Virus record (IMG/VR): IMGVR_UViG_3300045988_168552
Origin: a virus
Length of the DNA stretch: 64,000 nt
Reading direction: 5' to 3' (one strand)
The position numbers were made by a program, and so were the translations under genes. Below the pieces are notes generated by a model. The model ran no database searches. It had not been told where the DNA came from and saw only the letters and a program-made list of their open reading frames with translations. Positions within the stretch are counted from its first letter, which is position 1. Each line of letters begins with the position of its first letter. Shown here in pieces: positions 20,590 to 59,600 of the stretch.

Positions 20590-23500
20590 ATGGCAAAGAA
20601 TAAAACAGAGGCTATCATCACGCTCAACGGTCAGCAGCCGCTCCAGGTACTGAAGCAGTTGCAGGAGGCAGCAGCGGGTATATCCGACCAGATAGATGTG
20701 GCTCAGGCGAAGCTGAAAAACCTGAAGCCAAATACCGACCCATATAAAGCCCTCGATGCCACCATCAAGGATTTGAAGAAGCAGTATGATTTGCTGGCTT
20801 CTGCACAGATTAAAGATATAGCTGCCAATGAACGTTTGCAGAGTGTAGTGGACCAACTTAGTAATACTTCACTCCGCAATCTGCGCCGTGCATTGGGCGA
20901 CGGCAAACGTCAGCTTGAAGGCTTGTCAGAGGCAGAACTGGAGCAGGCTAATTCCATCCGCGCTATGATGAAGACAGTAGGCGACCAGATACGTCTGCTC
21001 GAAGGAAAGTATGTGAAGGTTAAGGAAAATTTAAAAAATGTTGGTGAGCAATCCGACCAATGGCTCAGTAAGGCTCTTACTCAGCAGAGAGAGCTTGTTT
21101 CTTCTTTAAAGAAAACATCCTCCGGCTATCAGTTTAACCTCGATATTTTAAAGCAACTGGAGGCTGAAGAGGATAGACGTAACGGCAAGATGAGTGCCAG
21201 TGAAGCTATGCTAGCCGTCGGTAATAAAAACGCTACCGCCTCCGAACTTCGCCGTGCTAGAACATCACTTACTCAGGCGAGGGATAATGTAGATACATCT
21301 GATACCGCTCTGATTAAATCTTTTAACGATGCCCTTGCTCAGATTGAGGAACGCCTGGATGCCGTATCGGGCAAGGCTCAGAAAGCAGCCATCAGTTGGC
21401 AGAAAATGCGTCAGGTATTATCTAACCCTGGTAAGGCTTCAGGCGAGGACATTAAGCGCACCATGGACGCTATTCAGCAGAAAATACAGCAACTCCCTGC
21501 TGGAAGTAAGGCTGTATCTGATTTGCGGAGACAATACGCCCAGTTGGAGCAGACTCTGAAAGGTACCCGCCTCTCGCAAGCGCAGCTCAATGATATTGTT
21601 GCCCGCAGTAAGACTGGCAAGGCAAATATCAATGAGCTGAGACAGGCTTATAAGCAACTTGAGGAGGAACTGAACTTTGTCAACACCAAGAGCGAGACAT
21701 TTGCAAACAGACAGAAGGAGCTGAAGAACCTCAAAAAGGTTATTGATGACGCAACGGGTGCAGCCAATAAGCAGAGTGGTGCGTGGAATACGGCGTTAAA
21801 GAACTTAACCGCATACGTAGGTCTGTTTGCGGTATTTAACCAGGCAAAGACTTACTTTGTTGATTTATTCCGTCTGAACATGAAGTTTATGGATCAGTTG
21901 ACGGATATTCGTAAGGTTGCGCTTTCTACTACGGATGAAATAGCAAATCTTTCTCGTGAGTTGGCAAAAATTGATACCCGTACCAGTCTTGAAGAGTTAA
22001 ACCGAATCGCTTATGCTGGTGCCAAGTTAGGTATTCAAACACAGGGTGGCACTATGGCACTCGCTGGCTTCGTCCGTGCCGCCGACCAGGTAAATGTGGC
22101 GCTTAAAGAAGATTTGGGCGAGGAAGCGCTCACGGCTTTGGCAAAGATTACTGAGGTAATGGGATTGGTTGGCAAGTATGGTGTAGAAAAAGCCATGCTG
22201 AAGACCGGTTCTGCAATCTTCCGTCTGGCATCTACATCTACCGCTACTAGTGGCAAAATTGTTGATTTCTCTAATCGTATGCTTGCCCTTGGCGAACAGG
22301 CTGCCCTTACCACGCCTGATATTCTCGCCCTTGGTTCTGCGGTAGATAGTATGGCATTGGAGCCAGAAGTTGCTGCTACTGCTTTCGGTAAACTGGTAAC
22401 TGAGTTACGAAAAGGCACAAGCCCTATTGAAAAATCCCTGGGTATTGCTACTGGAAGTTTGAAGAAGATGATCGAGAGCGGAAGAGGTATGGACGCTATT
22501 CTTACTATCTTTAGAAGAATGGGCGAAACCAAAAACGTTTTTGCTCTTGATGGATTGTTTAAAGACTTAGGCTCTGACGGTGCCCGACTCGTGAAGACGA
22601 TGGTTACGATGGCTGCCAAGAATGGTATGCTTACAAAAGCTGTTGAGGAATCCAACAAAGCTTTTAATGACGGTACGGCTGTAACGGTAGAGTATAATAT
22701 GCAGCAGGAAACCGCTATGGCTTATATGGAGCGTGCCAATAACCTTTGGGAGAAACAGTTTGTTTCGTCTAGCGCAGCGGCAGGTCCCGTTCACGATATA
22801 GCCAAGGCGTGGTTTGAGTTAACTAAGGAGTTGACTAGCAGCCTCGGTTTTATGACAGAGGTAAAATTAGCCATCGGACTTATCTTTGCTTCTGTCAAAA
22901 TGCTGCTGAATATCCTTCCTACGCTCATATCTATGCTCAGTATGGCAGGTTTGGCGGGTGCGTTTGCATACGTACTTGATTATGCTCAGAAGTTGAGTTC
23001 TGCTTCGGCCTCACTGAGCGTGGTTTGGGCTAAGATGGTTTCAACTTTCAATAAACTGTCATTAGTAAAACAGGCTGGTGTCTTCGGTGGCATAATCGGC
23101 TTGTTAGGTATTCTTGTCGTAAAGTTGGCTGAATATACGTCTTCTCTGAATCAGGCTTCAGCCGGTCAGCGTGTACTGAACGAAGTACAGGAGGAAGGTA
23201 AGCGTAGGGCAATGGAAGAGCAGGAGCAACTGAATCGTCTTCATAATGTAATGAAAGATACTTCTGCTTCTATGAAGTTGCGAATCGATGCGATGAATCA
23301 GTTGAATAGTGCTATTCCTGGACTCAATGCAAAGATTAATGCTGAAACCGGTGCTGTCAAGGAAAATACTCAGGCATGGGATGCAAACTTTACCCGCTTG
23401 CAGAAGTATTACGAACTTGAAGGTGCCCGTTCTAAGCTGGCAGAGTTGGGTCGTCAGAAGGTGGATGCAATTCTTGATTTGCAGAAAAAAGAAGATGCTT

Positions 23501-26500
23501 ACGCTAACTCGAAGGTACAGACACCTAACGGCTCCTATATTCAGACTTCCGGCGGTGCCATGATGCCTTCTCAGGTTCAGGGCGCTATCGGCCAAGCAGG
23601 TCAGAGGGCTGCGGCAAAGAGTGCTCGTGATAAGGCTCAACGCCGATTGGACGATGTTATTGCGCAGGAAAACGCATTAAGAGATAGATTCGGCGCGGAA
23701 TTGGATGTGGCAACTGGTAAAGAGACGGGAACCCCACAACATATTGATGAAACTGGGAAGGGCGGTAAAGGCTCTGCTACAACTCCTGAAGACGATGCCC
23801 GCAACAATATATCCGAGTTCATAACCAAAATCAAGAACTTCTACGAACGCCAGAAGACGGCAATGGTAGAGGAAATGACAAAGGATAATGTAGAAAAGGA
23901 GATACAGAAGCAGGTTGTTTATGACTTGGATATAAAGCTGAAATCGGCTCTCGCTGCGGCAAAGCAATCTATTGTTCTCGGTAAGAAAACCTGGGATGAT
24001 TTCAAAAAGACAATGGATAAAGACCGCAAGGAGAAGGATGATGAGTTTGGCCAGTCTCAGTCTCGTACCTTGCTGGAACAGATTAATGCTTACGATGTGT
24101 CAAAACTCCGTGCTGACCTTTTAAAGCAACTGCCTAAAATCAAGAAGGGCAAGATCGTTGGCTATAAATCCGATGAGCGGGATAGGGCATACCTCGACCG
24201 TCAATGGCTCGATGCGTCAAAGGGCGAAAACAGTAACGCCAATATCATACAGGAACGCATGGAGCAGCGCCGTAAAGAACTGCTGGAGCATGATTACACC
24301 AAAGTGGTGCAGGAAAATTCTTTCCTCGGTCTGATAAGCTCTCGCTTTGCAGATGTATCCCTCGATTCTCTTCAGAAGGACAAAAATGATGTTATCAAGG
24401 TTCTTGAAAAGGCAAGAACGCAGATGGCTGATCTTTTTGCTACTGAAGGAAAGAAAGATAACTTACTGAAATTCCTCTTTGGCGAGAATTACGAAAATAC
24501 ACCTTCCGTCTTTCTTGCGCTTTTGGATGATACGGAGGAGGACGTAAAGCTGTTCTATCAGAAACTCATCCAGTATTCTGATGAATATACTGCTGCAGAA
24601 AAGAAACATTACGATGAAGCAAAGAAGATTACTGATTTCTTGTGGAAAACCAATCAGCGCAATCTTGCCAACCAGGAAGCCCTTCGCAAGATGCAGCAGG
24701 AAAGTGCGCTCTTCGGTAAGCGAACTAATATGTGGTCTAACCTCGGTCTCGGCGACCTCACCGCCGACCCAGAGGTGGAGCTGATGAAGATGAAGATGCA
24801 GATGGCAGAAGATTATTATGCTTTCGTTTTCAAAAACTCACGCAACAAGCAGCTCCTCGATGAAGCAGACAAGGCTCGTCAGGAGGCAGAACTTGCCTAT
24901 GTCAACCAAATGGCAACGGCGATGAAGAACCGCCTCTCGCAGATGCAGCAGCTCGTGCAGCCTATCGAAACCTTCGGTTCGGAAGTAGGCAAGGCATTTG
25001 CCGAAATGCGTAACGATGTAAGCAGCGCGCAGGAAGCCATTAAGAACGCCCTGAAGTCTATGCTTGAGTCATGGGCTAATATGGCACTCAACGACGTGAA
25101 TACACAGATGTGGAAGGCTATCAACGATGCAGGAGCCAAGCGAGCTAAGAAAAGAGCGCAGCCTGATATTGATAAAGCGAGAGCCAACGCTAATGCCAAT
25201 GCCGTGAAGGAAGATTTCTCTCATCTCGGCACGAAGGCTAACCCGATGTATGTGCGACTGGTAGATGAGGGTGCAGCTTACCTTACTCCGCAACCGCAGT
25301 CTAGTTTCGAGAATATGAGTTCACGGCAGCAGCCTATCGGTTGGAATCCTGATGGCTCGCCTATCATGCCTGGCAAATCTCCTATTGCGCCTGATAACAC
25401 TCCCGTCGTGCCTTATGCGCCTACCGATACCAAGCAGCAGGGTACACCAGAGCAGCAAAACGGTGCTCCTCATGCGTGGGCACATCGCAACCGAGACAAC
25501 GCCAATGCGTTCTATCAGGATGCCGCAACGCAAACGGGTGCGGCAGCAGCCGATGCTATCGCAGGTGGCGGTTCCTGGTCCGATGTCGCAGCAGGTATCG
25601 GTGGTTCTTTCATCGGTGGTGTGATGAATACCGAGTTCAAGACTGGCGGCGGCAAATCTAAGGAAGACAAGGAGAAAGCCGAGCAACTGAAGAAGGAAAA
25701 GAAGCACCAGAAGGAACTGAGCAAAGAGGTAAAGAAGGGCAATAAGGATCGTGAGAAGGTAACTACCCAGGGCGTGAAGAACATCACTAACGTAACTGAT
25801 GCCGGAAACAAGGAGCAGACTGAGGGCACAAAGGTGGCTTTGAATGCGGGTATGGCTATGACCCAAACTGCGCTCACTGAGAACCTTAATAAAACGCAGG
25901 AAAATAACGAGGCCATCATTCAATCGGATGCGGACCGCATGCAAGCAGGAATGACCTTCTCTATCGCTGGTGCCATCGGTAAGTGTTTTGATTTCCTGGG
26001 TCCTATCGCGGGTCCTATTGCAGCCGCAGGTGTAATGGCTACCCTGATGGGCTTGCTCCAGTGGGCACTCAATTCTGCATTCAGCGGCGGCAAGAAGAAG
26101 AGTAATACCAATACCACCAACACCAAGCTTGTAACAGGCATGCTTACCTACGATAGCGGTAACGTGCAGGATTTGAAGCCATTTGTGGCTGATAATGGCG
26201 AAGTGTATTGGGCGAAGGAAGATGATGGCAAGCAGATGCAGGGTGTGAAGATGCTCACGTCTCCAACCGCCACCACCGTGAACGGTCAGCCGTCTCTCGT
26301 AGCCGAGAGAGGACCAGAAATCGTGATTGGTAGGGAAACCACCCACGCCATGATGATGAATAACCCTGGCTTGCTGAAAGCGCTCGTGAACTACGACCGC
26401 AACTATTCAGGAAGAAACTCAGCAAGAAGGGCATTTGATAATGGCAATGTGGGTGATGTTCTTGCAGCAGGCACGAAAGCAGGCAATGGTAATCTTTCGT

Positions 26501-26685
26501 CTGGCGCGTCAGCGGCAGGCGACCTGGTTACCGCAGGCATTGCAAGCAATGCGGCGCTCCTGCAAGCCGTGAATGCGCTCATTCAGCGCCTGAATGAGCC
26601 TATCAACGCCAAGATTAATATGTTTGGTCGTGGCGAGCTGTATGATAGCCTGAATAAGGCTAATCAGTTTATGAAGAATAAATAG
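20590..26685 (+). CDS. tail tape measure protein
   Basis: 2031 aa. Long Ala/Lys/Glu/Gln-rich helical sequence. LTDIRKVALSTTDEIANLSRELAKIDTRTSLEELNRIAYAGAKLGI resembles the TP901-type tape-measure core. Internal hydrophobic Gly/Ala-rich segments. Confidence 0.85.
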   Translation: MAKNKTEAIITLNGQQPLQVLKQLQEAAAGISDQIDVAQAKLKNLKPNTDPYKALDATIKDLKKQYDLLASAQIKDIAANERLQSVVDQLSNTSLRNLRRALGDGKRQLEGLSEAELEQANSIRAMMKTVGDQIRLLEGKYVKVKENLKNVGEQSDQWLSKALTQQRELVSSLKKTSSGYQFNLDILKQLEAEEDRRNGKMSASEAMLAVGNKNATASELRRARTSLTQARDNVDTSDTALIKSFNDALAQIEERLDAVSGKAQKAAISWQKMRQVLSNPGKASGEDIKRTMDAIQQKIQQLPAGSKAVSDLRRQYAQLEQTLKGTRLSQAQLNDIVARSKTGKANINELRQAYKQLEEELNFVNTKSETFANRQKELKNLKKVIDDATGAANKQSGAWNTALKNLTAYVGLFAVFNQAKTYFVDLFRLNMKFMDQLTDIRKVALSTTDEIANLSRELAKIDTRTSLEELNRIAYAGAKLGIQTQGGTMALAGFVRAADQVNVALKEDLGEEALTALAKITEVMGLVGKYGVEKAMLKTGSAIFRLASTSTATSGKIVDFSNRMLALGEQAALTTPDILALGSAVDSMALEPEVAATAFGKLVTELRKGTSPIEKSLGIATGSLKKMIESGRGMDAILTIFRRMGETKNVFALDGLFKDLGSDGARLVKTMVTMAAKNGMLTKAVEESNKAFNDGTAVTVEYNMQQETAMAYMERANNLWEKQFVSSSAAAGPVHDIAKAWFELTKELTSSLGFMTEVKLAIGLIFASVKMLLNILPTLISMLSMAGLAGAFAYVLDYAQKLSSASASLSVVWAKMVSTFNKLSLVKQAGVFGGIIGLLGILVVKLAEYTSSLNQASAGQRVLNEVQEEGKRRAMEEQEQLNRLHNVMKDTSASMKLRIDAMNQLNSAIPGLNAKINAETGAVKENTQAWDANFTRLQKYYELEGARSKLAELGRQKVDAILDLQKKEDAYANSKVQTPNGSYIQTSGGAMMPSQVQGAIGQAGQRAAAKSARDKAQRRLDDVIAQENALRDRFGAELDVATGKETGTPQHIDETGKGGKGSATTPEDDARNNISEFITKIKNFYERQKTAMVEEMTKDNVEKEIQKQVVYDLDIKLKSALAAAKQSIVLGKKTWDDFKKTMDKDRKEKDDEFGQSQSRTLLEQINAYDVSKLRADLLKQLPKIKKGKIVGYKSDERDRAYLDRQWLDASKGENSNANIIQERMEQRRKELLEHDYTKVVQENSFLGLISSRFADVSLDSLQKDKNDVIKVLEKARTQMADLFATEGKKDNLLKFLFGENYENTPSVFLALLDDTEEDVKLFYQKLIQYSDEYTAAEKKHYDEAKKITDFLWKTNQRNLANQEALRKMQQESALFGKRTNMWSNLGLGDLTADPEVELMKMKMQMAEDYYAFVFKNSRNKQLLDEADKARQEAELAYVNQMATAMKNRLSQMQQLVQPIETFGSEVGKAFAEMRNDVSSAQEAIKNALKSMLESWANMALNDVNTQMWKAINDAGAKRAKKRAQPDIDKARANANANAVKEDFSHLGTKANPMYVRLVDEGAAYLTPQPQSSFENMSSRQQPIGWNPDGSPIMPGKSPIAPDNTPVVPYAPTDTKQQGTPEQQNGAPHAWAHRNRDNANAFYQDAATQTGAAAADAIAGGGSWSDVAAGIGGSFIGGVMNTEFKTGGGKSKEDKEKAEQLKKEKKHQKELSKEVKKGNKDREKVTTQGVKNITNVTDAGNKEQTEGTKVALNAGMAMTQTALTENLNKTQENNEAIIQSDADRMQAGMTFSIAGAIGKCFDFLGPIAGPIAAAGVMATLMGLLQWALNSAFSGGKKKSNTNTTNTKLVTGMLTYDSGNVQDLKPFVADNGEVYWAKEDDGKQMQGVKMLTSPTATTVNGQPSLVAERGPEIVIGRETTHAMMMNNPGLLKALVNYDRNYSGRNSARRAFDNGNVGDVLAAGTKAGNGNLSSGASAAGDLVTAGIASNAALLQAVNALIQRLNEPINAKINMFGRGELYDSLNKANQFMKNK

Positions 26686-26780: not shown

Positions 26781-26782
26781 GT

Positions 26783-26822: not shown

Positions 26823-26828
26823 TTTCTT

Positions 26829-27390: not shown

Positions 27391-27414
27391 GAAAAAATGA
27401 AGTTTCGGGTGTGA

Positions 27415-27506
27415 AAGCTTTTGCCCTTACAGGGCGCATTGCTGATTGCCATTATACCCAGGGCGATGCCCTGGGCTAGGAGCTTCTGCCCCTTCAGGGC
27501 GTGTGG
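27415..27506 (+). repeat. GC-rich REP-like triple-hairpin element, copy A
   Basis: GCCCTtacAGGGC, CCCAGGGcgatgCCCTGGG and GCCCCttcAGGGC. The reverse complement recurs at 56441..56532. Confidence 0.85.
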
Positions 27507-27605
27507 GGATCACGAAAAATCCGTCTAAATATATAATATTTCTTAAAAATATAACTTATATTATATATTATATAGCTTACCTATACTCTTTTCGATTTAT
27601 TTTTG

Positions 27606-27613
27606 TATCTTTG
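27606..27613 (+). promoter_or_regulatory. putative -7 box (TAnnTTTG)
   Basis: TATCTTTG about 35 nt upstream of ATG 27648. Confidence 0.45.
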
Positions 27614-27647
27614 CAGCAGATTTTATATAATATAATATATGTAAGGT

Positions 27648-47993: not shown

Positions 47994-48027
47994 AAGTAAA
48001 AAAGTAAAAAGGTAAAAAAATAAGGAT

Positions 48028-49143
48028 ATGATACTCTTTACGAATCAAGAACTTAGGCTTCACCTCCCCAGCAATGCCGTGGACGAGGTAGCCAATCTGC
48101 AGGGTATGCTCGACAATAGCGAAAAGGACTTCTTGAAGCCTCGCCTGGGAGCATCCCTATACGACCGTCTCTGCAAGCAGTATGCAAGCATAGAACCCTT
48201 AATATTCTGCGATGCGGTTGCTGATGGTACCTACGTCAACGACCCATGGAATGAGCTTCTGCTTTATGCGCAGCGCATGATTGTGAATGATGCGATGGCG
48301 CAAAACATCGAGAAGCAAGCACTTTCTGTGAATGGCTCCGGCATCAACGTAGCTTCCAGCAACGACTATGCCGTAGCCACCGACAAGCAGATAGCGCAGG
48401 GCAAGGAAAGCTACCGCCAGTCGGCCATGACCTCGCTCAATAACCTGCTTTCCCTCTTGGAGGGATGGGCAAAGGAAGTGAATACTCCTATGCCTATCGA
48501 GGCATCGGGCGATGGTACAGAAGGAACAGATGAAGGAACCGATAGCGGCAAAGATGATGCAGACGAAGCCGAGAAGAAACGGCATGAAGCGATAGAGGAA
48601 ATCGTAACCCTTTGGCAGGAGAGTAAGTACTATTACTACCATCGAGATCTGCTTTTCCCTACCTGCGAGTCTTTGCAGCCGTATCTCGATATTTACGGCA
48701 ACAGAGATAAGTTTGTGCGTCTCATCCCTGATATGCTTTTCATCCAGAGTGAGTATCTGGAAGAAGCATTTGGCGAAGATTTCATCCCTCGCCTCTTGCA
48801 GGCTGATGAGAACGACAAGATGCTGAAGAAGGCGCGTCAGCTTGTAGCCGCCTATCTCAAGGAACGTACATCAGTTATCAGTTTCGATAAGCTTACCCGC
48901 TCCACAGCGCACAATGATGCCATTACCGTAAGGGAAAGCATTCATCGGTTGCTGAAGAAAGAGGAAGTCGAAGCGCAAGCGAAACTCGATGCAGCCAAAG
49001 CTGATAGCGCCACAGAAGGCGGCTCCTCCTCATCGACGAGTAACGCCTCCAGTGCTTCATCATCGAATGACAAGGATGGCAGCGAAGGCTACGACAACAA
49101 CCAAAAAGGTTCTCGTATCTTCGTAACCCCTATTCTGTGCTAA
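48028..49143 (+). CDS. hypothetical structural protein
   Basis: 371 aa. Acidic and Ser-rich internal and C-terminal low-complexity regions. Confidence 0.6.
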   Translation: MILFTNQELRLHLPSNAVDEVANLQGMLDNSEKDFLKPRLGASLYDRLCKQYASIEPLIFCDAVADGTYVNDPWNELLLYAQRMIVNDAMAQNIEKQALSVNGSGINVASSNDYAVATDKQIAQGKESYRQSAMTSLNNLLSLLEGWAKEVNTPMPIEASGDGTEGTDEGTDSGKDDADEAEKKRHEAIEEIVTLWQESKYYYYHRDLLFPTCESLQPYLDIYGNRDKFVRLIPDMLFIQSEYLEEAFGEDFIPRLLQADENDKMLKKARQLVAAYLKERTSVISFDKLTRSTAHNDAITVRESIHRLLKKEEVEAQAKLDAAKADSATEGGSSSSTSNASSASSSNDKDGSEGYDNNQKGSRIFVTPILC

Positions 49144-49185
49144 AAATATTCGTAATTTTCAAATAAACAACAAAAACAAGGATTT

Positions 49186-50301: not shown

Positions 50302-50307
50302 AAAAAA

Positions 50308-50961
50308 ATGACAAAGAATAAAGAAACCCCCGAACAGCGCACGCAGCGTTTCAAGACCCTTTGCGTTAATATCCTCGCCCAGAGCGGCAACTGCCAGGAA
50401 TCCCAGCATACTTTCAAGAGCACGCAGAGCATTCCCGAAATGTGCGAGGCATGGCGCAAGTACTGGCACGGCTTAATCACCGAGGTACCGCAGCAGGTAA
50501 TCGATGCTTTCAAAGCCGTATATCCGGAATTTAAGGCTGATATAAACCAGGGTGGTATCTTCTATAACGAAGATTCGCCTACCGGTACCGTCCTTGTGGG
50601 TGATACAGACGAGGAAATCCACCTCTACTCTTCCCGAAAGATATACGTCCTCGGCAAGGCGCACGTCATTCTCCATAATGCGGCTACCGCCCTCGTGATG
50701 AATGAAGGCTGTAAGATAGAGTTATTGGATGGCAGCAAGGCAACCATCAAGGCAGGTTACGGAATCGCCCGGAATTATGCCCATCTGGTAACTTGCCAGG
50801 AAGCGGAATGCTACGACCAGAGTGTAGCCTTCATTACCGATGGCACCCTTCACGACCATGGGCATCAGAAGATCAATGCCTTTGGTACGGCAATGATCGA
50901 CACCTTTACCCATCGACTCATAGACCTCTATGATAGCGCCAGGATAGAAATCAGAAAGTAA
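50308..50961 (+). CDS. hypothetical protein
   Basis: 217-aa ORF. Confidence 0.6.
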   Translation: MTKNKETPEQRTQRFKTLCVNILAQSGNCQESQHTFKSTQSIPEMCEAWRKYWHGLITEVPQQVIDAFKAVYPEFKADINQGGIFYNEDSPTGTVLVGDTDEEIHLYSSRKIYVLGKAHVILHNAATALVMNEGCKIELLDGSKATIKAGYGIARNYAHLVTCQEAECYDQSVAFITDGTLHDHGHQKINAFGTAMIDTFTHRLIDLYDSARIEIRK

Positions 50962-50985
50962 ATATCAGAAAATAGAAATCAGAAA

Positions 50986-53892
50986 ATGAACTCACATCTC
51001 TCTATATTAATCAATGATAAGCCTGTGGCGCTCCCCGATGATTTCTCTATAGATATAGAGGATCAGAACCCGGTATTTAACGATACGGAAATGTTCTCCT
51101 ATCCCTTCTCTATCCCGCTAGACGGCAACCGCTGGCTGGTAAAGAACATCGAAGATATTCATGCTGCTATGAAAGCCGTGAATATGGAGCACCTGCCTGT
51201 CAGAATCAATGCCGACGGATTGCCATTCCGCAGCGGTACCCTGGTTATGCAGGATGGTGAGGAGATAACCAATTCTCTCTCTATGAGCATCGATGCCAGC
51301 ACGCAGAGTTTCAGCGAACTTATCAGCGACCTGCAATGTCGTGATATTCCGGTCAAAGACCAGATTATCATCGGCGAGAAAATTGGCAATGTGAGGGTGG
51401 ATATTTGGAGTAACCCGGTAGTAAAAGTCAACCTGCATTCCGATGGCAAGAAAGGTGGAAAGAATACCACCGCCACCGTTACGACCGACCCCTTGAGAGC
51501 TAGTAAGGTACTGGAACCCCAGGCACTCGGTTTCTCCTATCCCGCAAGCTGCAAGGAATATACCTCTACTGATACGGCACACTATATCGGCGATGCCTAC
51601 AACAAGAGTAAGAAATCTTATTCTTCTGGTGCGATAACGATCAATGTACCGCAAGAGACTGCCAACGGCAACTATATTAATACCTCGGCAGCCTATGACG
51701 AGACGGATGGCGCTGGCAGACCTGCTACCTACTGCAATGCCCGAATCTGTTACAAGCATCATGCCCTTGATGATGAAGGGAATACATCGAGTGACCTCAT
51801 CAAAATGGATAAGTGCTCATGGACGAATGAAGACCTCTATCCTTACTGGGTGTTGGATGCCAAACGTCCGCAATCGGGCATCTGCTTCTATGTACTCTAT
51901 TTCCTCGACTGCCTCTTTGCCCATTTGGGTGTAACCTTTGACAAACGCGCATTAATGGAGATAGAGGACCTGAAGCATCTCTGCTTCTTCACCACCGTCT
52001 GCGGTTATGATACTCTCGAACACCCCCATCACGGCGATTATTACGAAGCAAAGGAAATTCAGGATGCCAAGGACATCATCAACAAGGATGGCTATGTAAA
52101 AGGCAGCAATCCCGAAATGGAGATCGTGGCTGCTAAATCCGTAGGCGAAATCAAGACGGGCTTCTTTAAGGATCAGAAGCATATCAATTCCTGGTTGGAG
52201 AGCCGTGGCTGCGGCGGTCAGATTGAAATCACCAAGGCAGAAGATAAGGACGTGCAGGAACTCGAGCTTACGCTGACTGAAAACGGTGTGGCTACCACCC
52301 GCCATATCCAGGTGGGCGAGGTAGTTGCTTTTCCTCCTGGCAAGGGAATGAAAGTAACGGGTATCACCATCGAATCGAATATCAAGAAGTTTGAGGTGCA
52401 GGCAAACGTGCTCTATATGGTTGCCAACAGCGAGAATTTCCCTGACGAGAGCGTGAGCACTGTCATCTCTTCTCTAGAAAACGCATTCGGTATCAAGTTC
52501 TCCTACGATTACGAGCAGAAGAAGGTCACGGCTTATCTCACCCGCGACGTGATGCGAAAGAGCGGCAGAAAGACTAGGGATTTCCACTGCGAAATCCATT
52601 CGATGATTCCGGTGACCGAGAAGATTACCGGTGTGCGTATGCGCTATTCAGCCGAGGAGGATGCTAAGGAACAGAAGAGTTATGTGCGCAACGCCAAGGG
52701 CGAATTGAAGGATTCCAGCTACGATACCGACTATAATTACATTGACTATCCGTTGCCCGATGGTAACTCTAGCAAGATGGGTAGAACCGTTACGGATATG
52801 AAATATATAGAGTTTTTCCATAACATCAACAATCCAGGCGATAATAACTGCTACATCGACCGCAACACCGGCAATGCCTATCGTGTAAAGGTCAATAAGG
52901 AAGCTAAGACTTCCAACGAGCTGAAGCCTGTACTCTTCGAGGTAGGCCAGTTCAAGGGTGTAGAATATGGCGATTGCAGTGATGAGAATGAAGATTTCAT
53001 CCACGATATTTCCATCGACTTCACCCCTGTACCTTTCAACGATGTAAACTATTTCAAGGAGGTAAAGGCAGCCTATGGTTCGCATACCGCTGATGTGACT
53101 GACTTTGAAGGCAAGCCTTTGCTAAAAAGTGTAGTGCAGATTACAGAGGCTCAACAACCTATCCTCTGCGCTTATGTAGATGAGGATATGGAGCATGAGT
53201 TTGTACTGCAGGAGATTAACCAGGTTATCTCTTCTTCTTTCTGTGATTTCTACATGAAACAGAAATTAAAGCTCGTGGAAAGCTACGACCCTTCGGGCAC
53301 GGATGATGGCAACTCACCCTTGCAGGATAAGTCACGATGGGGCTTTGCCATGGCATTAATGCGTGGTGGCGGTAGTGATGCCACCCTGCAACCATACGAT
53401 TATAACTACGACCATTTCGGCACATCCAAATGGCGAACCAATGCAGGACAGTATGCCCTGGCTTGCGATTCGCTGGATATGATGGGCAATGTGTTTGATT
53501 ATAATGGTGTGCAGGAAGGTGTAGGCACCGGCGAACGTTTCTCGCTGAAGATACGAGCCTTCAAGGAACCATCGTGGCTAAAAGATCCGAAGTATAAGGA
53601 TTTGGTGCTCTGCAATGCCGATGAAGTAGATAAAAACGGTAAGGTAGTTAAGAAGGTCCGCTCCCGTGGTCTCTTCGATACCTTCATTCTCCCCTACGCC
53701 TATTTCCTTCTGAACAGAAAGAAGTTTATGATAAGATGCACCACCACCGTAGCGCAAGTGGCTGATATACCGAACCACTGGCAGGATTGGTGGAATATAG
53801 GCGGCATGAAATGTCTCATTGACAAGGTGAATACCACCATTGATGCCAAGACGGGTATGGGCGAAGTAGAGTTAACGGTATATGCTTTATAA
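50986..53892 (+). CDS. large virion protein (baseplate/tail hub candidate)
   Basis: 968 aa. Position is upstream of the tail fibre in the same operon. No motif recognised. Confidence 0.6.
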   Translation: MNSHLSILINDKPVALPDDFSIDIEDQNPVFNDTEMFSYPFSIPLDGNRWLVKNIEDIHAAMKAVNMEHLPVRINADGLPFRSGTLVMQDGEEITNSLSMSIDASTQSFSELISDLQCRDIPVKDQIIIGEKIGNVRVDIWSNPVVKVNLHSDGKKGGKNTTATVTTDPLRASKVLEPQALGFSYPASCKEYTSTDTAHYIGDAYNKSKKSYSSGAITINVPQETANGNYINTSAAYDETDGAGRPATYCNARICYKHHALDDEGNTSSDLIKMDKCSWTNEDLYPYWVLDAKRPQSGICFYVLYFLDCLFAHLGVTFDKRALMEIEDLKHLCFFTTVCGYDTLEHPHHGDYYEAKEIQDAKDIINKDGYVKGSNPEMEIVAAKSVGEIKTGFFKDQKHINSWLESRGCGGQIEITKAEDKDVQELELTLTENGVATTRHIQVGEVVAFPPGKGMKVTGITIESNIKKFEVQANVLYMVANSENFPDESVSTVISSLENAFGIKFSYDYEQKKVTAYLTRDVMRKSGRKTRDFHCEIHSMIPVTEKITGVRMRYSAEEDAKEQKSYVRNAKGELKDSSYDTDYNYIDYPLPDGNSSKMGRTVTDMKYIEFFHNINNPGDNNCYIDRNTGNAYRVKVNKEAKTSNELKPVLFEVGQFKGVEYGDCSDENEDFIHDISIDFTPVPFNDVNYFKEVKAAYGSHTADVTDFEGKPLLKSVVQITEAQQPILCAYVDEDMEHEFVLQEINQVISSSFCDFYMKQKLKLVESYDPSGTDDGNSPLQDKSRWGFAMALMRGGGSDATLQPYDYNYDHFGTSKWRTNAGQYALACDSLDMMGNVFDYNGVQEGVGTGERFSLKIRAFKEPSWLKDPKYKDLVLCNADEVDKNGKVVKKVRSRGLFDTFILPYAYFLLNRKKFMIRCTTTVAQVADIPNHWQDWWNIGGMKCLIDKVNTTIDAKTGMGEVELTVYAL

Positions 53893-53909
53893 CATAAAAA
53901 ACGAAAAAA

Positions 53910-55118
53910 ATGGATAGAAAAATTTTAGTCACTGGAACGGGTATTCATTCTGCCCTAGGCAGAAATACAAAAGAAGTAGCCCTCAATCTTTCCCAGGGCA
54001 AATGCGGTTTGGTTCATGATATGTGCCGCAACTACTATAACTCCGATCTGTGCGGAGACGTACCTAGTTGGGCAGAAGATTATGAGAAAATCCTTACCCA
54101 TGCGCAGAATGCCTGCCTGCCTCTGCATGGTTTCACCGTCCTCAATGCCGTATTTGAAGCGCTGAAGAACGCAAAGGTCAGCAAGGATTTCTTGGAAAAT
54201 CATAACGTTTCCATCATCGTAAGCAATGACTCTGAATGTTATGAGAGCCAAACCGTGGTGGACCATGTGAATAAAAATCGTCACAACCGCTCTTTGCCGG
54301 TAAATACCCTGTTCCGTTCGCTCAACTCCACTATCAGTATGAACCTGGCATCCATCCTCCATATCCACGGCTTATCGCTTACCGTAAGCGCAGCCTGTGC
54401 CGGAGGAGGTCACGCCATCGGTCTTGCCAAGATGCTTCTCGATAGCAAGCAGACGGAAATGGTAATCGTGATTGGCGCGCAGGAATGCGAATCTAATTAC
54501 TGCATGGAAGCTTTCGATGCTCTCGGTGTTTTCTCACCCGATAATGTGCAGCCGTTTGGTAAAGGCAGAAATGGATTGGCACCATCAGGTGGTGCAGCCT
54601 GCATCATCCTTGAACCATCGGATAGTTTTCGTCTGAAAGAAGAGAAGGTGTATTCCTTCGCTTCTCTTTCCGGCTATGGCTTCTCTACCAATGGAAAAGC
54701 CATCACTACTCCTGATACCTATCAGGAAGAAGTATCTATGCTGAATGCTATCGAGAACGCAGGTCTGGACGAAGGTATGATAGACGTAGTACTTGCTCAT
54801 GCTACCGGTACCCCGATGGGCGATGAAGCCGAGGCAAAGGCAATAGAGAAGGTCTTTCCTATCTGTCCGAACGTAGTAGCCACAAAAGGCTTAACGGGTC
54901 ACGAGTGCTGGATGGCAGGCGTATCGCAAGCCGTGCAAGCCGTGATGATGCTCACCTACGGCCGTCTTTTTGGCGCTGTAACCACCGAGGAGAATGCCTT
55001 CCCATCCCTCAATCTTGTGATGCGCCCGAAGTCCTATGCTCCTCACCATATTCTCTGTAACGCCTTCGGTTTTGGCGGTACCAATTCATCCTTTATCATC
55101 TCAAAAGCATTGTTATGA
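53910..55118 (+). CDS. beta-ketoacyl-ACP synthase, KAS I/II (FabB/FabF-like) class
   Basis: 402 aa. ILVTGTGIHSALG, active-site Cys in SAACAGGGHAIGLA, PFGKGRNGLAPSGGAA, His in AHATGTPMGDEAE, ATKGLTGHECWMAG, NAFGFGGTNSS. Consistent with a Cys-His-His triad. Confidence 0.9.
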   Translation: MDRKILVTGTGIHSALGRNTKEVALNLSQGKCGLVHDMCRNYYNSDLCGDVPSWAEDYEKILTHAQNACLPLHGFTVLNAVFEALKNAKVSKDFLENHNVSIIVSNDSECYESQTVVDHVNKNRHNRSLPVNTLFRSLNSTISMNLASILHIHGLSLTVSAACAGGGHAIGLAKMLLDSKQTEMVIVIGAQECESNYCMEAFDALGVFSPDNVQPFGKGRNGLAPSGGAACIILEPSDSFRLKEEKVYSFASLSGYGFSTNGKAITTPDTYQEEVSMLNAIENAGLDEGMIDVVLAHATGTPMGDEAEAKAIEKVFPICPNVVATKGLTGHECWMAGVSQAVQAVMMLTYGRLFGAVTTEENAFPSLNLVMRPKSYAPHHILCNAFGFGGTNSSFIISKALL

Positions 55119-55360
55119 AAAAAGAAGAAATAACTCCTCGCATTATCGCCATCGTAAACAGCCTGAAAACCTCGTGGGTCGGTTGCGAGGTAACAGAACA
55201 CTCCAATCTCCGTGATGAGGTCCAGCTGGAATCCATCGATTTCCTCGATCTCATTCAACAGGTAGAAATGATGTTTCACATCAAGATCACCCCTGAAGAG
55301 GCAAAAGACTGCAAGCTCGTTTCCGATGTAGTCAATCTCGTAATTAAAAAGAAAGAATAA
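55115..55360 (+). CDS. acyl carrier protein
   Basis: 81 aa. ATGA overlap with the KAS stop. EVQLESIDFLDLIQQVEMMFHIKITPEE matches the ACP helix-II DSLD/phosphopantetheine-Ser region. Confidence 0.8.
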   Translation: MKKEEITPRIIAIVNSLKTSWVGCEVTEHSNLRDEVQLESIDFLDLIQQVEMMFHIKITPEEAKDCKLVSDVVNLVIKKKE

Positions 55361-55361
55361 T

Positions 55362-56411
55362 ATGGCAAAGAAAATTAATCTCACGTCGGGTTCCATTTTT
55401 GCCGGAAACCCCATCACCTTCACCATCCAGCCCGAAACGCTGGATAGCCCCTCCTTCCACCGTGTCATCATAGAAGTAAACTTTGATAACGGAGGAAGCT
55501 ACGAAACCGTGAAGCTCACGGTACCCGTCACCACCGAAGGCAATAACGTAGCCCTGGATGTCTCCTCTGCACTCCGCATCCCCCTCGACAATTTCCCGTA
55601 CACCGCCACCACAAAAACCTTCCCGCTCGTAAGATGGTACATAAAAGCCTACGATGAGTATATGAACAAAAACGGCGAAGTGCATACCAGTGTAGGCGAG
55701 GTCTATTATCCACAGAAGCCTGTCGCAGGTACCGATACTGACCTTCGCTGCATAGCAGGAGCCATGTCGGATATGGAGCGCATTCTATCCAATCCATCCC
55801 CAGCAGTAAAAGACTTTTCCCGAAAGCCAACCTCTATCCCCGAAGTCACCGTTGTAGGCGAATCCTTCTCCTACCCAGTCTCCTATGCCTCTTCACAGAT
55901 ATTGGCATCCAGCACTGCACTCACCGCTCCTACCTCTTCCGAACAGAAAATCACAAAGGAAGGTTCGCAGACTATTGGCGGTCACGCCCTCTATGCTCTG
56001 CCATCCTCGGAAGCTGAAAACCGCAGTACCTTCCGCTTCATCAATGCCCGTGGCTGCCTGGAGAGCATCAATATCCCGAAAGCCTACAGCAAGAAGCTTT
56101 CGGTAGAAACCACTCCTTATACGATAGCCGTGCAGGAAACCTTCAATACCTTCTCCCGGTCCGCTATCAAGAAGCAGAATAACCGTGAGTCGTGGCTTTA
56201 TCAGAGCGACCCCCTCGATACCGCCTGGCTCTACTGGTACCTTCACGAGTTTCTGATGAGTGAGCACGTATGGCTGAAGGTAAAAGATACCTGGCTCTCC
56301 TGCACAATCACCCAGGAAGACGAGATAATGATCAGCGATTCCACCACGCAGAATATGTACTCCGTTTCCTTCACAGTCAAGCTCGACATCAACGGAAGTC
56401 CCTACCTCTAG
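55362..56411 (+). CDS. hypothetical tail-associated protein
   Basis: 349 aa. Starts 1 nt after the ACP stop. Confidence 0.6.
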   Translation: MAKKINLTSGSIFAGNPITFTIQPETLDSPSFHRVIIEVNFDNGGSYETVKLTVPVTTEGNNVALDVSSALRIPLDNFPYTATTKTFPLVRWYIKAYDEYMNKNGEVHTSVGEVYYPQKPVAGTDTDLRCIAGAMSDMERILSNPSPAVKDFSRKPTSIPEVTVVGESFSYPVSYASSQILASSTALTAPTSSEQKITKEGSQTIGGHALYALPSSEAENRSTFRFINARGCLESINIPKAYSKKLSVETTPYTIAVQETFNTFSRSAIKKQNNRESWLYQSDPLDTAWLYWYLHEFLMSEHVWLKVKDTWLSCTITQEDEIMISDSTTQNMYSVSFTVKLDINGSPYL

Positions 56412-56440
56412 CCAGTACTCCCTGCAGTCCTTATCATCGC

Positions 56441-56532
56441 CTATACGCCCTGAAGGGGCAGCAGCTCCTAGCCCAGGGTAACACCCTGGGTAATGGCAGC
56501 ATCATCAATGCGCCCTGAAAGGGCAAAAGCTT
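56441..56532 (-). repeat. GC-rich REP-like triple-hairpin element, copy B (inverted relative to copy A)
   Basis: The reverse complement aligns with 27415..27506 at roughly 85 percent identity by eye, with small indels. Confidence 0.85.
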
Positions 56533-56561
56533 TTTGTCCCACCTAAAACTGCAAAAACCTT

Positions 56562-56569
56562 TATCTTTG
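56562..56569 (+). promoter_or_regulatory. putative -7 box (TAnnTTTG)
   Basis: TATCTTTG about 34 nt upstream of ATG 56603. Confidence 0.45.
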
Positions 56570-56602
56570 CCCTATAAATGAATAAAAATCCAAACAAAAA
56601 AA

Positions 56603-59600
56603 ATGGCAACAGAAGCAAAGAATACAAACTATTGGATTTCGAGCAGTGCGCTCTACATCCAGCTTAATGCGATGGGTGAGCCAGACTACATCCAGTGTAG
56701 CGTAGTCTCCGGCGCATCCATCCTCTGCTATATGCAGGGCATTCCGGGTCTGGAGTATGATGCCGGTCACAACTACCAGCGCTGGCCTCTTGCTGCCTAC
56801 CCTTCCGTCTTCCCTGATTCCGAGCGGAAGTACATCTATGCAGCCATCCCCCGCACGAGCACCGCCGACAACAATACCGCCGTGGTGGTATATCCGAGCG
56901 AGCGCATCGACCTGTACGGCTACTCTATCGCCAATCCCGACAAGCTGGTAGGCGACGAGAGATTCTACTACATCTATCTGCAGGGCATCATCTCTGAAGT
57001 GAAGACGGATGCTGATGGCAAGACCCGCAAGCGTAATTGGCTCCAGCACGTGGATTGTGGAAAACTGAATACCGACGAATCCCTTTCGAGCGGTATCGAT
57101 GGCTCCTGGTGGAAGTATAATTCCGTCACCGATTCCATCTCCTTCCTCAAAACCATCCTCTCTGCCACCTTTGATACGCAGACTGCCAAGGTTGCGAAAA
57201 TCACGAAGCTGTTCCTGGGGGGTAGCGAGTTGAACGGCGTAGCCGATGATCTCAGCCTGGAAACGGATAACACGAAGGTGGTTACTCCTCTATATCTGGG
57301 TCAGTTTGGCGTGAAGCATTTCCTGGCGAAAGACAAGGATGATGTAGCCCATGGCACGATTACCTTCGAGAAGGTGCAGAAGTTCCTGGCAGGTCTGAAT
57401 GTGGGTGATTTCAACTCAGAGAACGGCGGTTCGTGGACTCCCGATATAGAAGGTCGCTCGCATCTCATCACCGACTACCTGGAGGTGAGGATGAAGGCTA
57501 TATTCGAGGAGCTTGTAATCAAGAAAACCTCCACCATCGGTGGTAAGGAGATTCTGTCTCCTGCTGGAGGCGTGGTGGCTCATAAGGTAGAAGAGGTTAC
57601 TGTGACATATAATAATTTGTCACAGAAGGCTTATCGCTGCTATTTCTTAGCAGAACAGGAAGACGATGCCGTGGATAATGATTTCGCTATTGGCGACCAA
57701 GTGCGTTCTGAGTCATTCAACGTTCGCAAGGGCACTTACCACAAAGTTGGCAATCACTTTTACTGGCGATTGGTAATCGGTCGTGATGAGGAACCTGTGG
57801 AGTTGGAAGGAAAGAAGTATCACTACATCGACCTCTCCGATACCGATTGCGCTACGGCAAGCGATGTTCCTGCTAAAGGTGATGTGTTGTCGCAGTGCGG
57901 TAACAGAACCGATGTAGAGCGTCAGAACTGCCTTATCTTCTCGGCGGTAGATACCTATTCGCCATCCGTCAGCCTCTATCACGGCATAAATAGCTATTCC
58001 TTTGCAAATAAAGAGTACGTGGAGTATGGCGTAAACAAGCAGACCAACAAGGCTTTCTTTAACGTCTATGGCGATATGTATGTAGGCGACCGACCTACAA
58101 AGGAGAATGGCTATGAGGGTAGTAGCTACATCAAGTATGACAGCGCAGCCAAGCAGGTATCTGTTAAAGGCAAAATCTCAGCCAAATCAACCGTGGATGG
58201 CAAGGAATTGTCTCAGTATATCAAGGAGAACTCAGCAGGAGGCTTAACCGAGGAGCAGGTGAACAATCTCATCAAGAACTCGCAGGTGATAGCCGACCTT
58301 CAGAATCAGGTTGACGGAGCTATCGAGACGTGGTTTTACGATGGTGTGCCTACTTTGAAGAATGCGCCAGCAAGCAGTTGGACGACCGATAAGGATAAAG
58401 ATACCCATCTCGGCGACCTTTACTACGACAACAAGACGGGCAAGGCATACCGCTTTGCCAAGGATGGAAACACCTATAAGTGGACAATCATCACGGATAC
58501 TGATATTGCCAAAGCTCTTTCTGATGCCAGCAAGGCACAGGAGACCGCAGATGGCAAGATGAAGGTATTTAGTGCTCAGCCTATTCCGCCTTATCAGTTG
58601 GGCGACATTTGGGTAAACGCTACCTATCCTACAGATGGCAGCATCTACAAGAATGAAATCCTGCGCTGCCAGACTGCCAAGGCAAAAGGTTCGTCATTTG
58701 CCATCGCTGACTGGACTAAGGCTTCCAAGTACACCGATGATTCTGCCCTCAATACCTTCAAGGAAGAGTACAAGAACGATATGGCTAGCTACAAGGAGCA
58801 GCTTGATGAGAAAGTGGAGACCTGGTTCTACAACTATGCTCCTACTACTCAGAATAAGCCTGCTTCCGACTGGACTACCGATACGTTGAAGTCGCAGCAC
58901 GCTGGCGACCTGTTCTACAATACGTCAAATGGTTACACATACCGATGGACGGGTACGGCATGGGCGAGAATCAAGGATAACGACATCAACACTGCTATGA
59001 CCGCAGCAAGCAAGGCGCAGGACACGGCAGATGGAAAGCGTACCGTTTTCACCTCTCAGCCTACTGTTCCTTATGACGAGGGCGATTTGTGGGCTAGCGG
59101 CGGAGATGATGGCAAGACTTTGATGGTGTGCGTTAAGAGTAGAGTCACTGGCAGTTTCACCTCATCAGAATGGGTAAAGGCTAATGATTCCGACCTCAAC
59201 GCATTCGCCAAGACCATAGAGGAAAGCTTGAATGGAATACGAGACCAGCTCGACAAGAAGGCTGAGACTTGGTATCAGGCAACCGACCCGAGTACATCCT
59301 GGACTACCGATGATGCGAAGAAGGAGCATAAGGGCGACCTGTGGTATAACACAAGCAACAACCAGACTTTCTTTTGGAATGGTACGAAATGGGATAAGCA
59401 GGACGTGCCTACCGAGGTCTTCGACAAGATAGATGGCAAATCCAGCATCTATGTAAGCAAGCCTGCATCCTATGAGGAACGTGACCTCTGGATTTTGGAA
59501 GCAGCATATACCCTCGGTGGTGTTGCATATTCCAAGGGCGAGCTTGTCGTGGCAACCAAGACCAATGCTTCATTCAGCGCAGCCGATTGGACAAAGAAGG

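Follow-up and report, generated by a model that had tools for sequence, protein, structure and literature searches.

Why does a phage carry genes for a ketoacyl synthase (KAS) and an acyl carrier protein (ACP) among its virion-type genes? The question arose from an initial annotation of IMG/VR virus record IMGVR_UViG_3300045988_168552, made from the sequence and its open reading frames alone. It described an ATGA-coupled KAS and ACP pair within a late structural operon, took this position to suggest a tail-linked function among other hypotheses, and did not name an origin for the pair. We analyzed the whole stretch of 64,000 nucleotides, referred to here as the window, together with related phage and cellular loci.

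Organization of the locus

The KAS and ACP genes were re-found in the ORFs and in the sequence with the same coordinates and overlap (Table 1). Their junction is TTGTTATGAAAAAAG, in which the stop and start codons overlap as ATGA. The pair is part of an array with the order portal-like gene, adaptor-like gene, 371-aa gene, 217-aa gene, 968-aa gene, KAS, ACP, Dit-like 349-aa gene, and giant fibre-like ORF. The spacing is 17 nt between the 968-aa gene and KAS, -4 nt between KAS and ACP, and 1 nt between ACP and the 349-aa gene. The gaps of 1-17 nt given in the initial annotation thus hold around the cassette but not for the giant ORF, which had been placed directly downstream and begins behind a gap of 191 nt. 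No tRNAs or Rfam families were found in the window.

Table 1. Features of the KAS-ACP locus, with positions in the 64,000-nt window.
Feature	Coordinates	Strand	Remarks
Tape measure protein	20590..26685	+	PhageMin_Tail and phrog_25337
Portal-like protein, 605 aa	46176..47993	+	First gene of the tightly packed array
DUF6712 protein, 371 aa, adaptor-like	48028..49143	+	PF20459 (3e-12)
Two conserved backbone genes, 371 aa and 217 aa	49186..50961	+	Synteny among relatives
Conserved backbone protein, 968 aa	50986..53892	+	Left border, insertion site
KAS, 402 aa	53910..55118	+	KAS I/II type, FabB-like but divergent, FlxC/ApeR-like origin
ACP, 81 aa	55115..55360	+	Start overlaps KAS stop (ATGA)
349-aa protein, tail-tube/Dit-like fold	55362..56411	+	Right border, insertion site
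Intergenic region, 191 nt	56412..56602	+	GC hairpins and TAtcTTTG promoter-like motif
Giant fibre-like ORF, >2465 aa	56603..64000	+	Continues past the window end; marginal fibre match

The KAS and ACP genes are intact and constrained

Pfam searches found both condensing-enzyme domains in the KAS protein, PF00109 (1e-24, residues 3-237) and PF02801 (3e-19, residues 251-353). Comparison with FabB structures and a 54-sequence alignment matched the Cys163-His297-His331 triad, the conserved Lys326 and the gating Phe386 to their counterparts in E. coli FabB/FabF, and all five residues were unchanged in 15 of 15 phage KAS homologues. These results agree with the initial description of a complete KAS I/II-type enzyme with intact catalytic motifs, and the concern that catalytic residues might be missing on proper alignment was not borne out. 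The ACP matched PF00550 in Pfam (2e-5), NCBIfam ACP models (1.6e-11) and phrog_5934. Its LESIDF stretch holds an ESI motif whose Ser corresponds in the alignment to the DSL Ser of E. coli AcpP, and in all phage ACPs this (D/E)S(L/I) Ser was constant. Both genes are intact and constrained, with dN/dS values of 0.10 for KAS and 0.12 for ACP.

In fold, in both Pfam domains, in catalytic residues and in ACP architecture the phage pair is like housekeeping FabB/FabF with AcpP, but its KAS is only 25% and 23% identical to E. coli FabB and FabF, respectively, and falls outside them in the tree described below. Its best NCBIfam model was FabB (NF005935), with 166.5 bits against a cutoff of 630, and the FabF model TIGR03150 gave 162.6 bits against a cutoff of 493.75; cellular cluster-type KAS proteins (360-388 bits) were also under the FabB/FabF equivalog cutoffs. 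The top PDB sequence match was 4xox_A (deposited as 3-oxoacyl-ACP synthase), which at 138 bits ranked above the E. coli FabB structures. Given the curated cutoffs and the tree, we rejected membership of the phage KAS in the FabB/FabF equivalogs. The phage loci also do not fit a type II PKS KS-alpha/CLF system, in which a chain-length factor without the active-site Cys accompanies the KS: they contain one KS, which has Cys163, and no further KS-like ORF.

The cassette is related to KS-ACP pairs of flexirubin/aryl-polyene-type clusters

Phylogenetic placement of the KAS, a check suggested in the initial annotation, put the phage clade with cluster-type KS. The tree was built by neighbour-joining only, has a long phage branch and contains E. 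coli proteins as its only housekeeping references; in it, the phage KAS were monophyletic in 195 of 200 bootstraps, phage and cluster-type KAS formed a group without E. coli FabB/FabF in 192 replicates, and about 125 replicates had the Bacteroidota cluster KAS as the sister of the phage clade. The phage KAS clade was distinct from all cellular sequences sampled, with 34-45% identity to the cellular homologues, and identity among the phage KAS lineages themselves went down to 34-45%. For the phage ACP, the ACP next to KAS in APE-type clusters gave a higher score than E. coli AcpP did.

Among the loci surveyed, the cellular homologues lay mostly within (TAL)-SDR-KAS-ACP-Lip_A_acyltrans-DH-TE-KS-KS clusters, a layout that corresponds to the published flexirubin cluster (PMC3992019). 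The nearest relatives of the phage pair, at 35-40% identity, are the FlxC-position KS and the adjacent ACP of Bacteroidota flexirubin/aryl-polyene clusters (the flx cluster of Chitinophaga pinensis, and the ApeR-like KS of proteobacterial APE clusters). These clusters share the KS-then-ACP gene order and the Cys-His-His-Lys set with the window (PMC3992019, PMC8253772). They differ from the phage loci in that the phages have kept only KS and ACP and form a separate long branch.

These comparisons place the ancestry of the cassette with the KS-ACP pair of flexirubin/aryl-polyene-type clusters, not with housekeeping FAS, and thereby supply the origin that the initial annotation had not named. As part of our leading explanation, for which the case is about evenly balanced, KS and ACP would have been captured once from the FlxC position of such a cluster by an ancestor of ~100-kb Prevotella/Bacteroidales siphophages. 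Clusters homologous to the aryl-polyene type were widespread in Prevotella/Segatella in our scan, with at least 588 matches in Bacteroidales, and aryl polyene BGCs have been reported in Prevotella (PMC13455363). Megablast and tblastn searches of INPHARED found no close relative of the window phage; the best KAS match there (36% identity) lay on a faecal contig that has no annotation, and the remaining KAS matches look host-type. A literature search found no description of the phage KS-ACP clade.

The cassette is an accessory element found at several sites

The order 968-KAS-ACP-349 was found in 54 of 80 IMG/VR loci and recurs in dozens of independent ~100-kb contigs. The same junctions were present in JGI, ENA and Logan assemblies as well as in the IMG/VR contigs, and the identical protein was indexed in 89 collection blocks. 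Because the arrangement recurs across independent assemblies, the contig is not chimeric, which answers a worry voiced in the initial annotation. The explanation that 53.9-55.4 kb is chimeric or contaminating host DNA has therefore been refuted and is left with a negligible probability: no point was found in its favour, and the codon-level purifying selection within the phage lineage and the separation of the phage KAS clade from cellular sequences also oppose it.

In about 25 related phages with the portal...968-349-fibre backbone, the 968-aa and 349-aa genes are adjacent, mostly with gaps of 5-70 nt, forming a clean empty site, and none of these relatives came up when IMG/VR as a whole was scanned for the phage KAS clade. 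The cassette is thus an accessory among related phages, carried by 54 loci and lacking in about 25 relatives. In another clade the cassette is reversed (ACP-KAS) and follows the tape measure gene (TMP), giving the order TMP-ACP-KAS-primase (loci L008-L015, L017, L025, L027 and L090); the TMP site carries no cassette here, and the same goes for 80 of 80 loci in the wider clade. In locus L016, a 160-kb contig, it lies between exonuclease and terminase. The cassette abuts tail genes in two of three phage lineages, and in the lineage studied here it shares the elevated dS and divergence of the 968/349 block. The best reading of this distribution is a moron-like accessory that has moved from one site to another along the borders of tail genes, and tail-module edges are classic moron insertion sites. 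The accessory insertion and the alternative sites speak against the earlier idea that position implies a tail-linked function.

Prevotella is the indicated host, from binning and one isolate assembly. A 90-kb phage contig belonging to the sister clade is present whole in the assembly of the isolate Prevotella sp. MGM1. This strain was not among the 80 matches listed of the at least 588 Bacteroidales matches in the cluster scan.

Flanking genes and transcription signals

The virion-gene setting described in the initial annotation was supported by matches to the portal and adaptor of Polaribacter phage Leef_1 and by a tube/Dit-like fold, the match of the giant ORF being marginal. The 605-aa protein resembled the Leef_1 portal (tblastn E 3e-15, 26.6% identity, 47% of the query), and the DUF6712 protein weakly resembled the Leef_1 adaptor gp07 (BLASTP E 7e-4), which likewise follows the portal. 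The 371-aa and 217-aa backbone genes had no family matches in Pfam or PHROG and were syntenic in cassette-positive and cassette-negative relatives alike. The AF2 model of the 349-aa protein (pLDDT 66) gave partial Foldseek matches in PDB (probability 0.9-1.0, TM 0.2-0.39) to tube proteins of AFP, monocin, T5 and lambda and to a baseplate chain of lactococcal phage p2. In BFVD it matched uncharacterised siphovirus proteins, with E down to 6e-13 beyond one close relative. Leef_1 gp15, which is encoded after the Leef_1 TMP, was among these matches; the likeness to gp15 is at the fold level only, with no sequence-level link.

The position of the 968-aa gene to the left of KAS was confirmed, but its label as a virion protein found no database or structure match. 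Pfam, PHROG, PDB sequence and INPHARED tblastn searches gave no match, and neither hhalign against the Leef_1 'tail spike' nor PHROG searches with remote family members found anything. The AF2 model was unusable (pLDDT 30), and the family comprises 297 clusters at 50% identity. The giant ORF matched the tail collar fibre 9d93 marginally (E 0.0026) and is mosaic among relatives, differing widely in length and identity. Taken with the matches above, the genes flanking the cassette are plausibly virion genes.

A TAtcTTTG motif, the sole intergenic Bacteroidota-type TAnnTTTG motif in 44-58 kb, lies 41 nt before the giant ORF, and short GC hairpins occur in the same 191-nt gap. The KAS-ACP cassette was bordered by no TAnnTTTG motif and no terminator. 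The full -33/-7 pattern showed no enrichment, and a scan for sigma-70 promoters and terminators performed no better than shuffles, the sigma-70 model being ill-suited to Bacteroidota. The gaps of 17, -4 and 1 nt around the cassette suggest read-through from the upstream virion genes, and we infer that the cassette is co-transcribed with the virion genes because the gaps are only 1-42 nt.

Partner enzymes and a possible mechanism

At the Pfam level, no FabD, FabG, FabZ, PPTase or lipid acyltransferase was found from about -8 kb to +64 kb, a range that takes in all of the phage genome except about 25-30 kb outside the window. This agrees with the initial observation that the window holds no partner lipid enzymes. 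The phage loci carry only KS and ACP; TAL, KR, DH, thioesterase, LPLAT, KS/CLF and exporter genes were not found in them.

The surveyed phage sequence contains no PPTase, and conversion of the phage ACP to holo-ACP would need one from the host. Host FabD would then load malonate, and the phage KS would carry out decarboxylative Claisen condensation on its private ACP. The chain could be processed by host FabG/FabZ or by the KR/DH of a host aryl-polyene cluster, and a host acyltransferase could pass the product into an envelope lipid. Infected cells would in this way come to make, or to divert, a special pool of acyl or polyene lipid.

Capture from a pigment-lipid cluster together with insertion between virion genes makes the cassette most likely a host-manipulating accessory and not part of the tail. 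Our leading explanation, held with middling confidence, is a moron-like auxiliary module that was captured once, is kept by purifying selection and is not a tail component; its proposed function, the use of host enzymes to alter an envelope lipid, is the inferred part. A purely metabolic role does not predict the adjacency to tail genes or the divergence shared with the 968/349 block.

Discussion

A virion-linked function, in line with the initial annotation, would mean that an acyl chain made by KS/ACP is joined to a protein of the tail or baseplate, or that KS and ACP are packaged, aiding penetration of the Bacteroidota outer membrane. The cassette lies between virion genes here and right after the tape measure gene in the other clade, its gaps are tight with a real ATGA overlap, and it has the high dS also seen in the 968/349 block, all of which would suit such a role. 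However, sister phages with homologous 968-aa, 349-aa and fibre proteins lack the pair altogether, the L016 cassette adjoins exonuclease and terminase instead of tail genes, no protein acyltransferase was found, and the edge of a tail module is a classic place for morons to insert. A role in tail-protein acylation is weakened by these points, and we regard the virion-linked reading as quite improbable. We give a similarly low standing to a related reading, in which the lipid that KS-ACP would make or reroute is of the aryl-polyene type, lies in the Prevotella outer membrane and matters for phage entry, its effect being either to block superinfection or to supply lipid for tail proteins. It would explain why the cassette travels and diverges with the receptor-binding tail end, and seroconversion genes linked to tail-spike genes are a precedent for envelope modification that blocks superinfection.

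A generic booster of fatty acid synthesis, giving extra FAS II elongation for late membrane or phospholipid supply, also appears unlikely. The clade stems from the aryl-polyene/flexirubin KS-ACP pair instead of housekeeping enzymes, the KAS scores far under the FabB/FabF equivalog cutoffs, bulk FAS would not need a private, highly diverged ACP, and tailed phages do not build a lipid envelope. This idea does draw on the best NCBIfam and PDB matches, which are FabB/FabF-type enzymes, on the lack of specialised tailoring genes in the phage, and on the fabG-acpP-fabF sets of predicted Rhodobacteraceae prophages, virus-associated KAS and ACP genes that have been listed as AMGs (PMC8224337). Those sets keep the housekeeping operon order, whereas the pair described here is an old phage-specific clade inside virion genes. 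That KS and ACP serve as non-catalytic decoys blocking host FAS or aryl-polyene enzymes, or as an anti-defence factor, is very unlikely, because neither the catalytic residues nor the phosphopantetheine-site Ser vary among phage lineages sharing just 34-45% identity; the strong divergence from cellular homologues with a long branch, and the accessory status that counter-defence genes often share, are the observations that such decoys would account for.

The rhizobial NodF/NodE system offers the best functional analogy for a KS and ACP pair that stands alone. NodF works with the ketosynthase NodE, and the remaining steps come from housekeeping FAS. NodF is a specialised ACP beside housekeeping AcpP, serving the polyunsaturated acyl chain of Nod factors (PMC9542644). 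The comparison concerns function. NodFE is bacterial and symbiosis-related and its product reaches a known acceptor via NodA, whereas the phage pair is viral and has no known acceptor or transferase.

Aryl-polyene and flexirubin-type clusters are among the commonest bacterial biosynthetic clusters, and their products are located in the outer membrane. An abundant human-gut and rumen Prevotella phage lineage keeps KS and ACP under purifying selection while identity falls to ~35%, which suggests that phages manipulate the aryl-polyene lipid pathway. The pair would then provide a two-gene handle for learning what the pathway does and whether envelope polyene lipids affect phage infection, and the catalogue of viral auxiliary genes would widen from bulk fatty acid synthesis to specialised lipid and polyketide chemistry. 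Prevotella sp. MGM1, with its sister-clade phage contig, could make the lipid-pathway idea testable.

The KAS and ACP genes and their neighbours

As the initial annotation had proposed, the window carries a KAS gene with intact catalytic motifs whose stop overlaps the start of an ACP gene (ATGA in TTGTTATGAAAAAAG); both ORFs, their domains and the residues concerned were verified. In an alignment to FabB-type structures and in a 54-sequence alignment, the catalytic positions of the KAS are occupied by Cys163, His297, Lys326, His331 and Phe386, and the Ser of an ESI motif in the ACP sits where E. coli AcpP has DSL. Pairwise Nei-Gojobori dN/dS over eight relatives was 0.10 for the KAS and 0.12 for the ACP, with 0.05 to 0.16 for neighbouring genes. 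The condensing enzyme is shown to be intact and constrained, with a dedicated carrier. The pair lies 17 nt and 1 nt from its flanking genes; the intergenic gaps of 1–17 nt described earlier hold for these flanks but not for the giant fibre-like ORF, which is preceded by a 191-nt gap.

Features of the window with coordinates and supporting matches
Feature	Coordinates	Strand	Evidence or remarks
KAS ORF, 402 aa	53910-55118	+	PF00109 1e-24, PF02801 3e-19
ACP ORF, 81 aa	55115-55360	+	PF00550 2e-5; NCBIfam ACP models down to 1.6e-11; phrog_5934 'acyl carrier protein'
Intergenic region, 191 nt	56412-56602		Precedes giant ORF start 56603; three short GC-rich hairpins and TAnnTTTG motif
Tape measure protein, 2031 aa	20590-26685
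LysR-type transcriptional regulator, full-length	37558-38463		HTH_1 and LysR_substrate; phrog_3736
S49-type head protease
GH108 endolysin and holin
Primase			BT4734_N/PriCT_2
ThyX
Dcm methylase

The pair belongs to a tightly packed array (46176-56411, gaps of 1–42 nt). Its first gene encodes a 605-aa protein similar to the one annotated as portal in Polaribacter phage Leef_1 (E 3e-15), and the second a DUF6712 protein that weakly matched the Leef_1 adaptor at the same position (E 7e-4). For the model of the 349-aa protein (pLDDT 66), Foldseek matched tail-tube, Hcp and baseplate proteins with high probability over part of their length, among them lambda gpV, the AFP, monocin and T5 tubes and one chain of the phage p2 baseplate. 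Many siphovirus proteins that are uncharacterised are structurally homologous to the 349-aa protein, including Leef_1 gp15, whose gene is directly 3' of the Leef_1 tape measure gene, the usual Dit position. The giant ORF gave only a marginal tail-collar-fibre match, but its length and sequence both vary in mosaic fashion between relatives. Because of this portal, adaptor, tube/Dit-fold and fibre evidence, embedding in a virion/tail gene array is reasonable, but a "baseplate operon" is undemonstrated. The 968-aa protein had been called a virion protein, an unverified label, since every method applied left the protein unassigned.

The hairpins in the 191-nt gap are GCCCTGAAGGGGC; CCCAGGGTAACACCCTGGG; and GCCCTGAAAGGGC then AAAAGCTTTTTG. 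TAtcTTTG at 56562 is the only intergenic Bacteroidota-type -7 motif (TAnnTTTG) within 44–58 kb, and a separate promoter for the fibre gene is probable.

Distribution and mobility of the cassette

An identical KAS protein was found in 89 blocks of a public assembly collection, on JGI and ENA contigs of up to about 94 kb, and more than 120 further KAS clusters were 86–94% identical, many on contigs of about 100 kb. The order 968-KAS-ACP-349-giant ORF was present in 54 of 80 IMG/VR loci, all retrieved via the 968-aa protein. An assembly artefact was ruled out by this recurrence of the identical KAS and gene order across independent contigs, and its probability is negligible; chimerism at the cassette, raised earlier as a concern, does not apply, as protein and gene order recur in JGI, ENA and IMG/VR.

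Four cassette states were observed among related phages. The arrangement in the window, 968-KAS-ACP-349, is shared by relatives with an identity of 69% or more in the 968-aa protein. A sister clade, found in rumen and elsewhere, has the pair in reversed order behind the tape measure gene (tape measure-ACP-KAS, about 1 kb without ORFs, primase, ThyX); the corresponding tape measure-to-primase interval of the window carries no cassette. About 25 relatives with the backbone portal-adaptor-371-217-968-349-fibre have 968 directly beside 349, with gaps mostly of 5–70 nt. Their 968-aa protein is 37–51% identical, and many of their contigs are 94–106 kb. An IMG/VR-wide profile scan that kept matches down to 30% identity found no phage-clade KAS in these contigs, and both of the two relatives inspectable at the tape-measure site lacked the cassette there. 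In the fourth state, on a 160-kb contig, the pair is flanked by a 5'-3' exonuclease gene on one side and the terminase gene on the other. Since presence, absence and location vary among related phages, the cassette acts like a moron or auxiliary gene and not a structural component. Furthermore, dS of the 968-KAS-ACP-349 block (50986-56411) was 0.5–0.9, two to three times that of the portal-to-217 genes (about 0.3), which places the cassette in a fast-exchanging module end and indicates that this segment is a recombining mosaic.

An ORF-poor stretch of about 1 kb separates the primase from the tape measure gene in the window (26686-27647) and from the KAS in the sister-clade locus L009 (11246-12305). 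It contained no tRNA or Rfam family and could be an origin or regulatory region.

Origin of the pair

The KAS is FabB-like but falls far short of the NCBIfam equivalog cutoffs, with 166 bits where the FabB model requires 630. A scan of 185,579 species genomes recovered chromosomal homologues with 35–40% identity in Flavobacteriia, Chitinophagia, Cytophagia, Bacteroidales, Myxococcota and others, most in one layout: (aromatic amino-acid ammonia-lyase)-SDR-KAS-ACP-Lip_A acyltransferase-dehydratase(s)-4HBT thioesterase-KS-(ACP)-KS. This layout matches the published Chitinophaga pinensis flexirubin cluster (FlxA TAL, FlxB reductase, FlxC ketosynthase and others; PMC3992019) and resembles aryl-polyene clusters, which make outer-membrane polyene lipids (10.1101/2020.12.19.423268; PMC8253772). 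Clusters of this type, but with no lyase alongside, abound in Prevotella/Segatella, Muribaculaceae, Barnesiella and Alistipes (at least 588 matches), and aryl polyene clusters have been reported in Prevotella species (PMC13455363).

In a neighbour-joining tree (405 columns, 200 bootstraps, no Bacteroidota housekeeping FabF among the references), the 15 phage KAS were monophyletic in 195 of 200 replicates, on a long branch. In 192 replicates, phage and cluster-type KAS grouped together without E. coli FabB and FabF, and the Bacteroidota cluster KAS was sister to the phage clade in about 125. The phage ACPs scored 26–38 bits against the cluster ACP encoded directly after the KAS, versus 15–25 against E. 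coli AcpP and 9–20 against the second cluster ACP. The simplest reading of these sequences is that one old capture took a KS-ACP pair and nothing else.

Among the matches listed, the cluster KAS was 73–82% identical across Prevotella/Segatella, Muribaculaceae, Barnesiella, Alistipes and Parabacteroides. A "secondary metabolite" gene is not usually so strongly conserved, a hint that its role in the envelope of gut Bacteroidales may be a core one. ACPs of the tape-measure-site clade (L009 9753-10016, L010, L013, L015 and L017; upstream of the KAS) share a C-terminal extension, KPS(L/V/I)C(D/N), that is conserved and in which the Cys is invariant; the window ACP and cellular ACPs lack this extension.

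Possible function

In agreement with the initial annotation, no malonyl transferase, reductase, dehydratase, PPTase or lipid acyltransferase was found from about -8 kb to +64 kb. We give an even chance to the reading that the pair is an auxiliary KS-ACP module extending a chain for an envelope lipid; the evolutionary half of this reading is much firmer than the biochemical half. The phage ACP would be primed by host PPTase and FabD and its chain extended by the phage KS; host FAS II enzymes, or the KR and DH of a host aryl-polyene cluster, would complete each cycle, and a host acyltransferase would pass the product to the envelope lipid. NodF partners the ketosynthase NodE, with housekeeping FAS supplying the remaining steps. 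A dedicated ACP beside the housekeeping AcpP has precedent in NodF (PMC9542644).

A generic booster of FAS is an unlikely alternative to this envelope-lipid module. A virion-linked or tail-acylation role is improbable, given sister phages without the cassette and its context near the terminase on the 160-kb contig, and a non-catalytic decoy, against which the invariant catalytic residues argue, is quite improbable.

The general kind is already known, because KAS and ACP genes were listed as auxiliary genes of predicted prophages (PMC8224337). Within the literature searched, three points appear new: the deep phage-specific KS-ACP clade, its derivation from aryl-polyene/flexirubin-type clusters and not housekeeping FAS, and the fixation of the pair in an abundant gut/rumen Prevotella phage lineage in which it moves between tail-gene-border sites.

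Phage and host

INPHARED contained no close relative of the window phage. GTDB bins holding phage contigs were uncultured Prevotella sp. UMGS1972 (87% KAS identity), rumen Prevotellaceae and Prevotella MAGs, and one Bacteroidaceae MAG. The isolate assembly of Prevotella sp. MGM1 contains a whole phage-sized contig of 90,283 bp from the TMP-ACP-KAS sister clade (Contig204; loci L017 and L082), which suggests that host and phage form a pair that can be cultured, or that the phage is in a carrier or episomal state. The binning, this isolate contig and the Bacteroidota promoter motif point to Prevotella/Bacteroidales as the probable hosts.

The tape measure gene is about 30 kb away from the Dit-like and fibre genes (55362-64000), with the primase, ThyX, head protease, LysR regulator, endolysin and Dcm methylase genes in between, and this scrambled module order is kept across the clade. 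Two near-identical copies of a 35-nt T-rich motif, TTTGTTTTTATTTT[T/C]GTTATTACTCTTTA[T/C]TTTTG, occur on the minus strand of the window (4080-4114 and 6084-6118) and may be a repeated regulatory element of the early region. At 16548-17279, close to its replication module, the sister-clade phage L009 has a gene whose product contains a Tad2-like (Thoeris anti-defence 2) domain.
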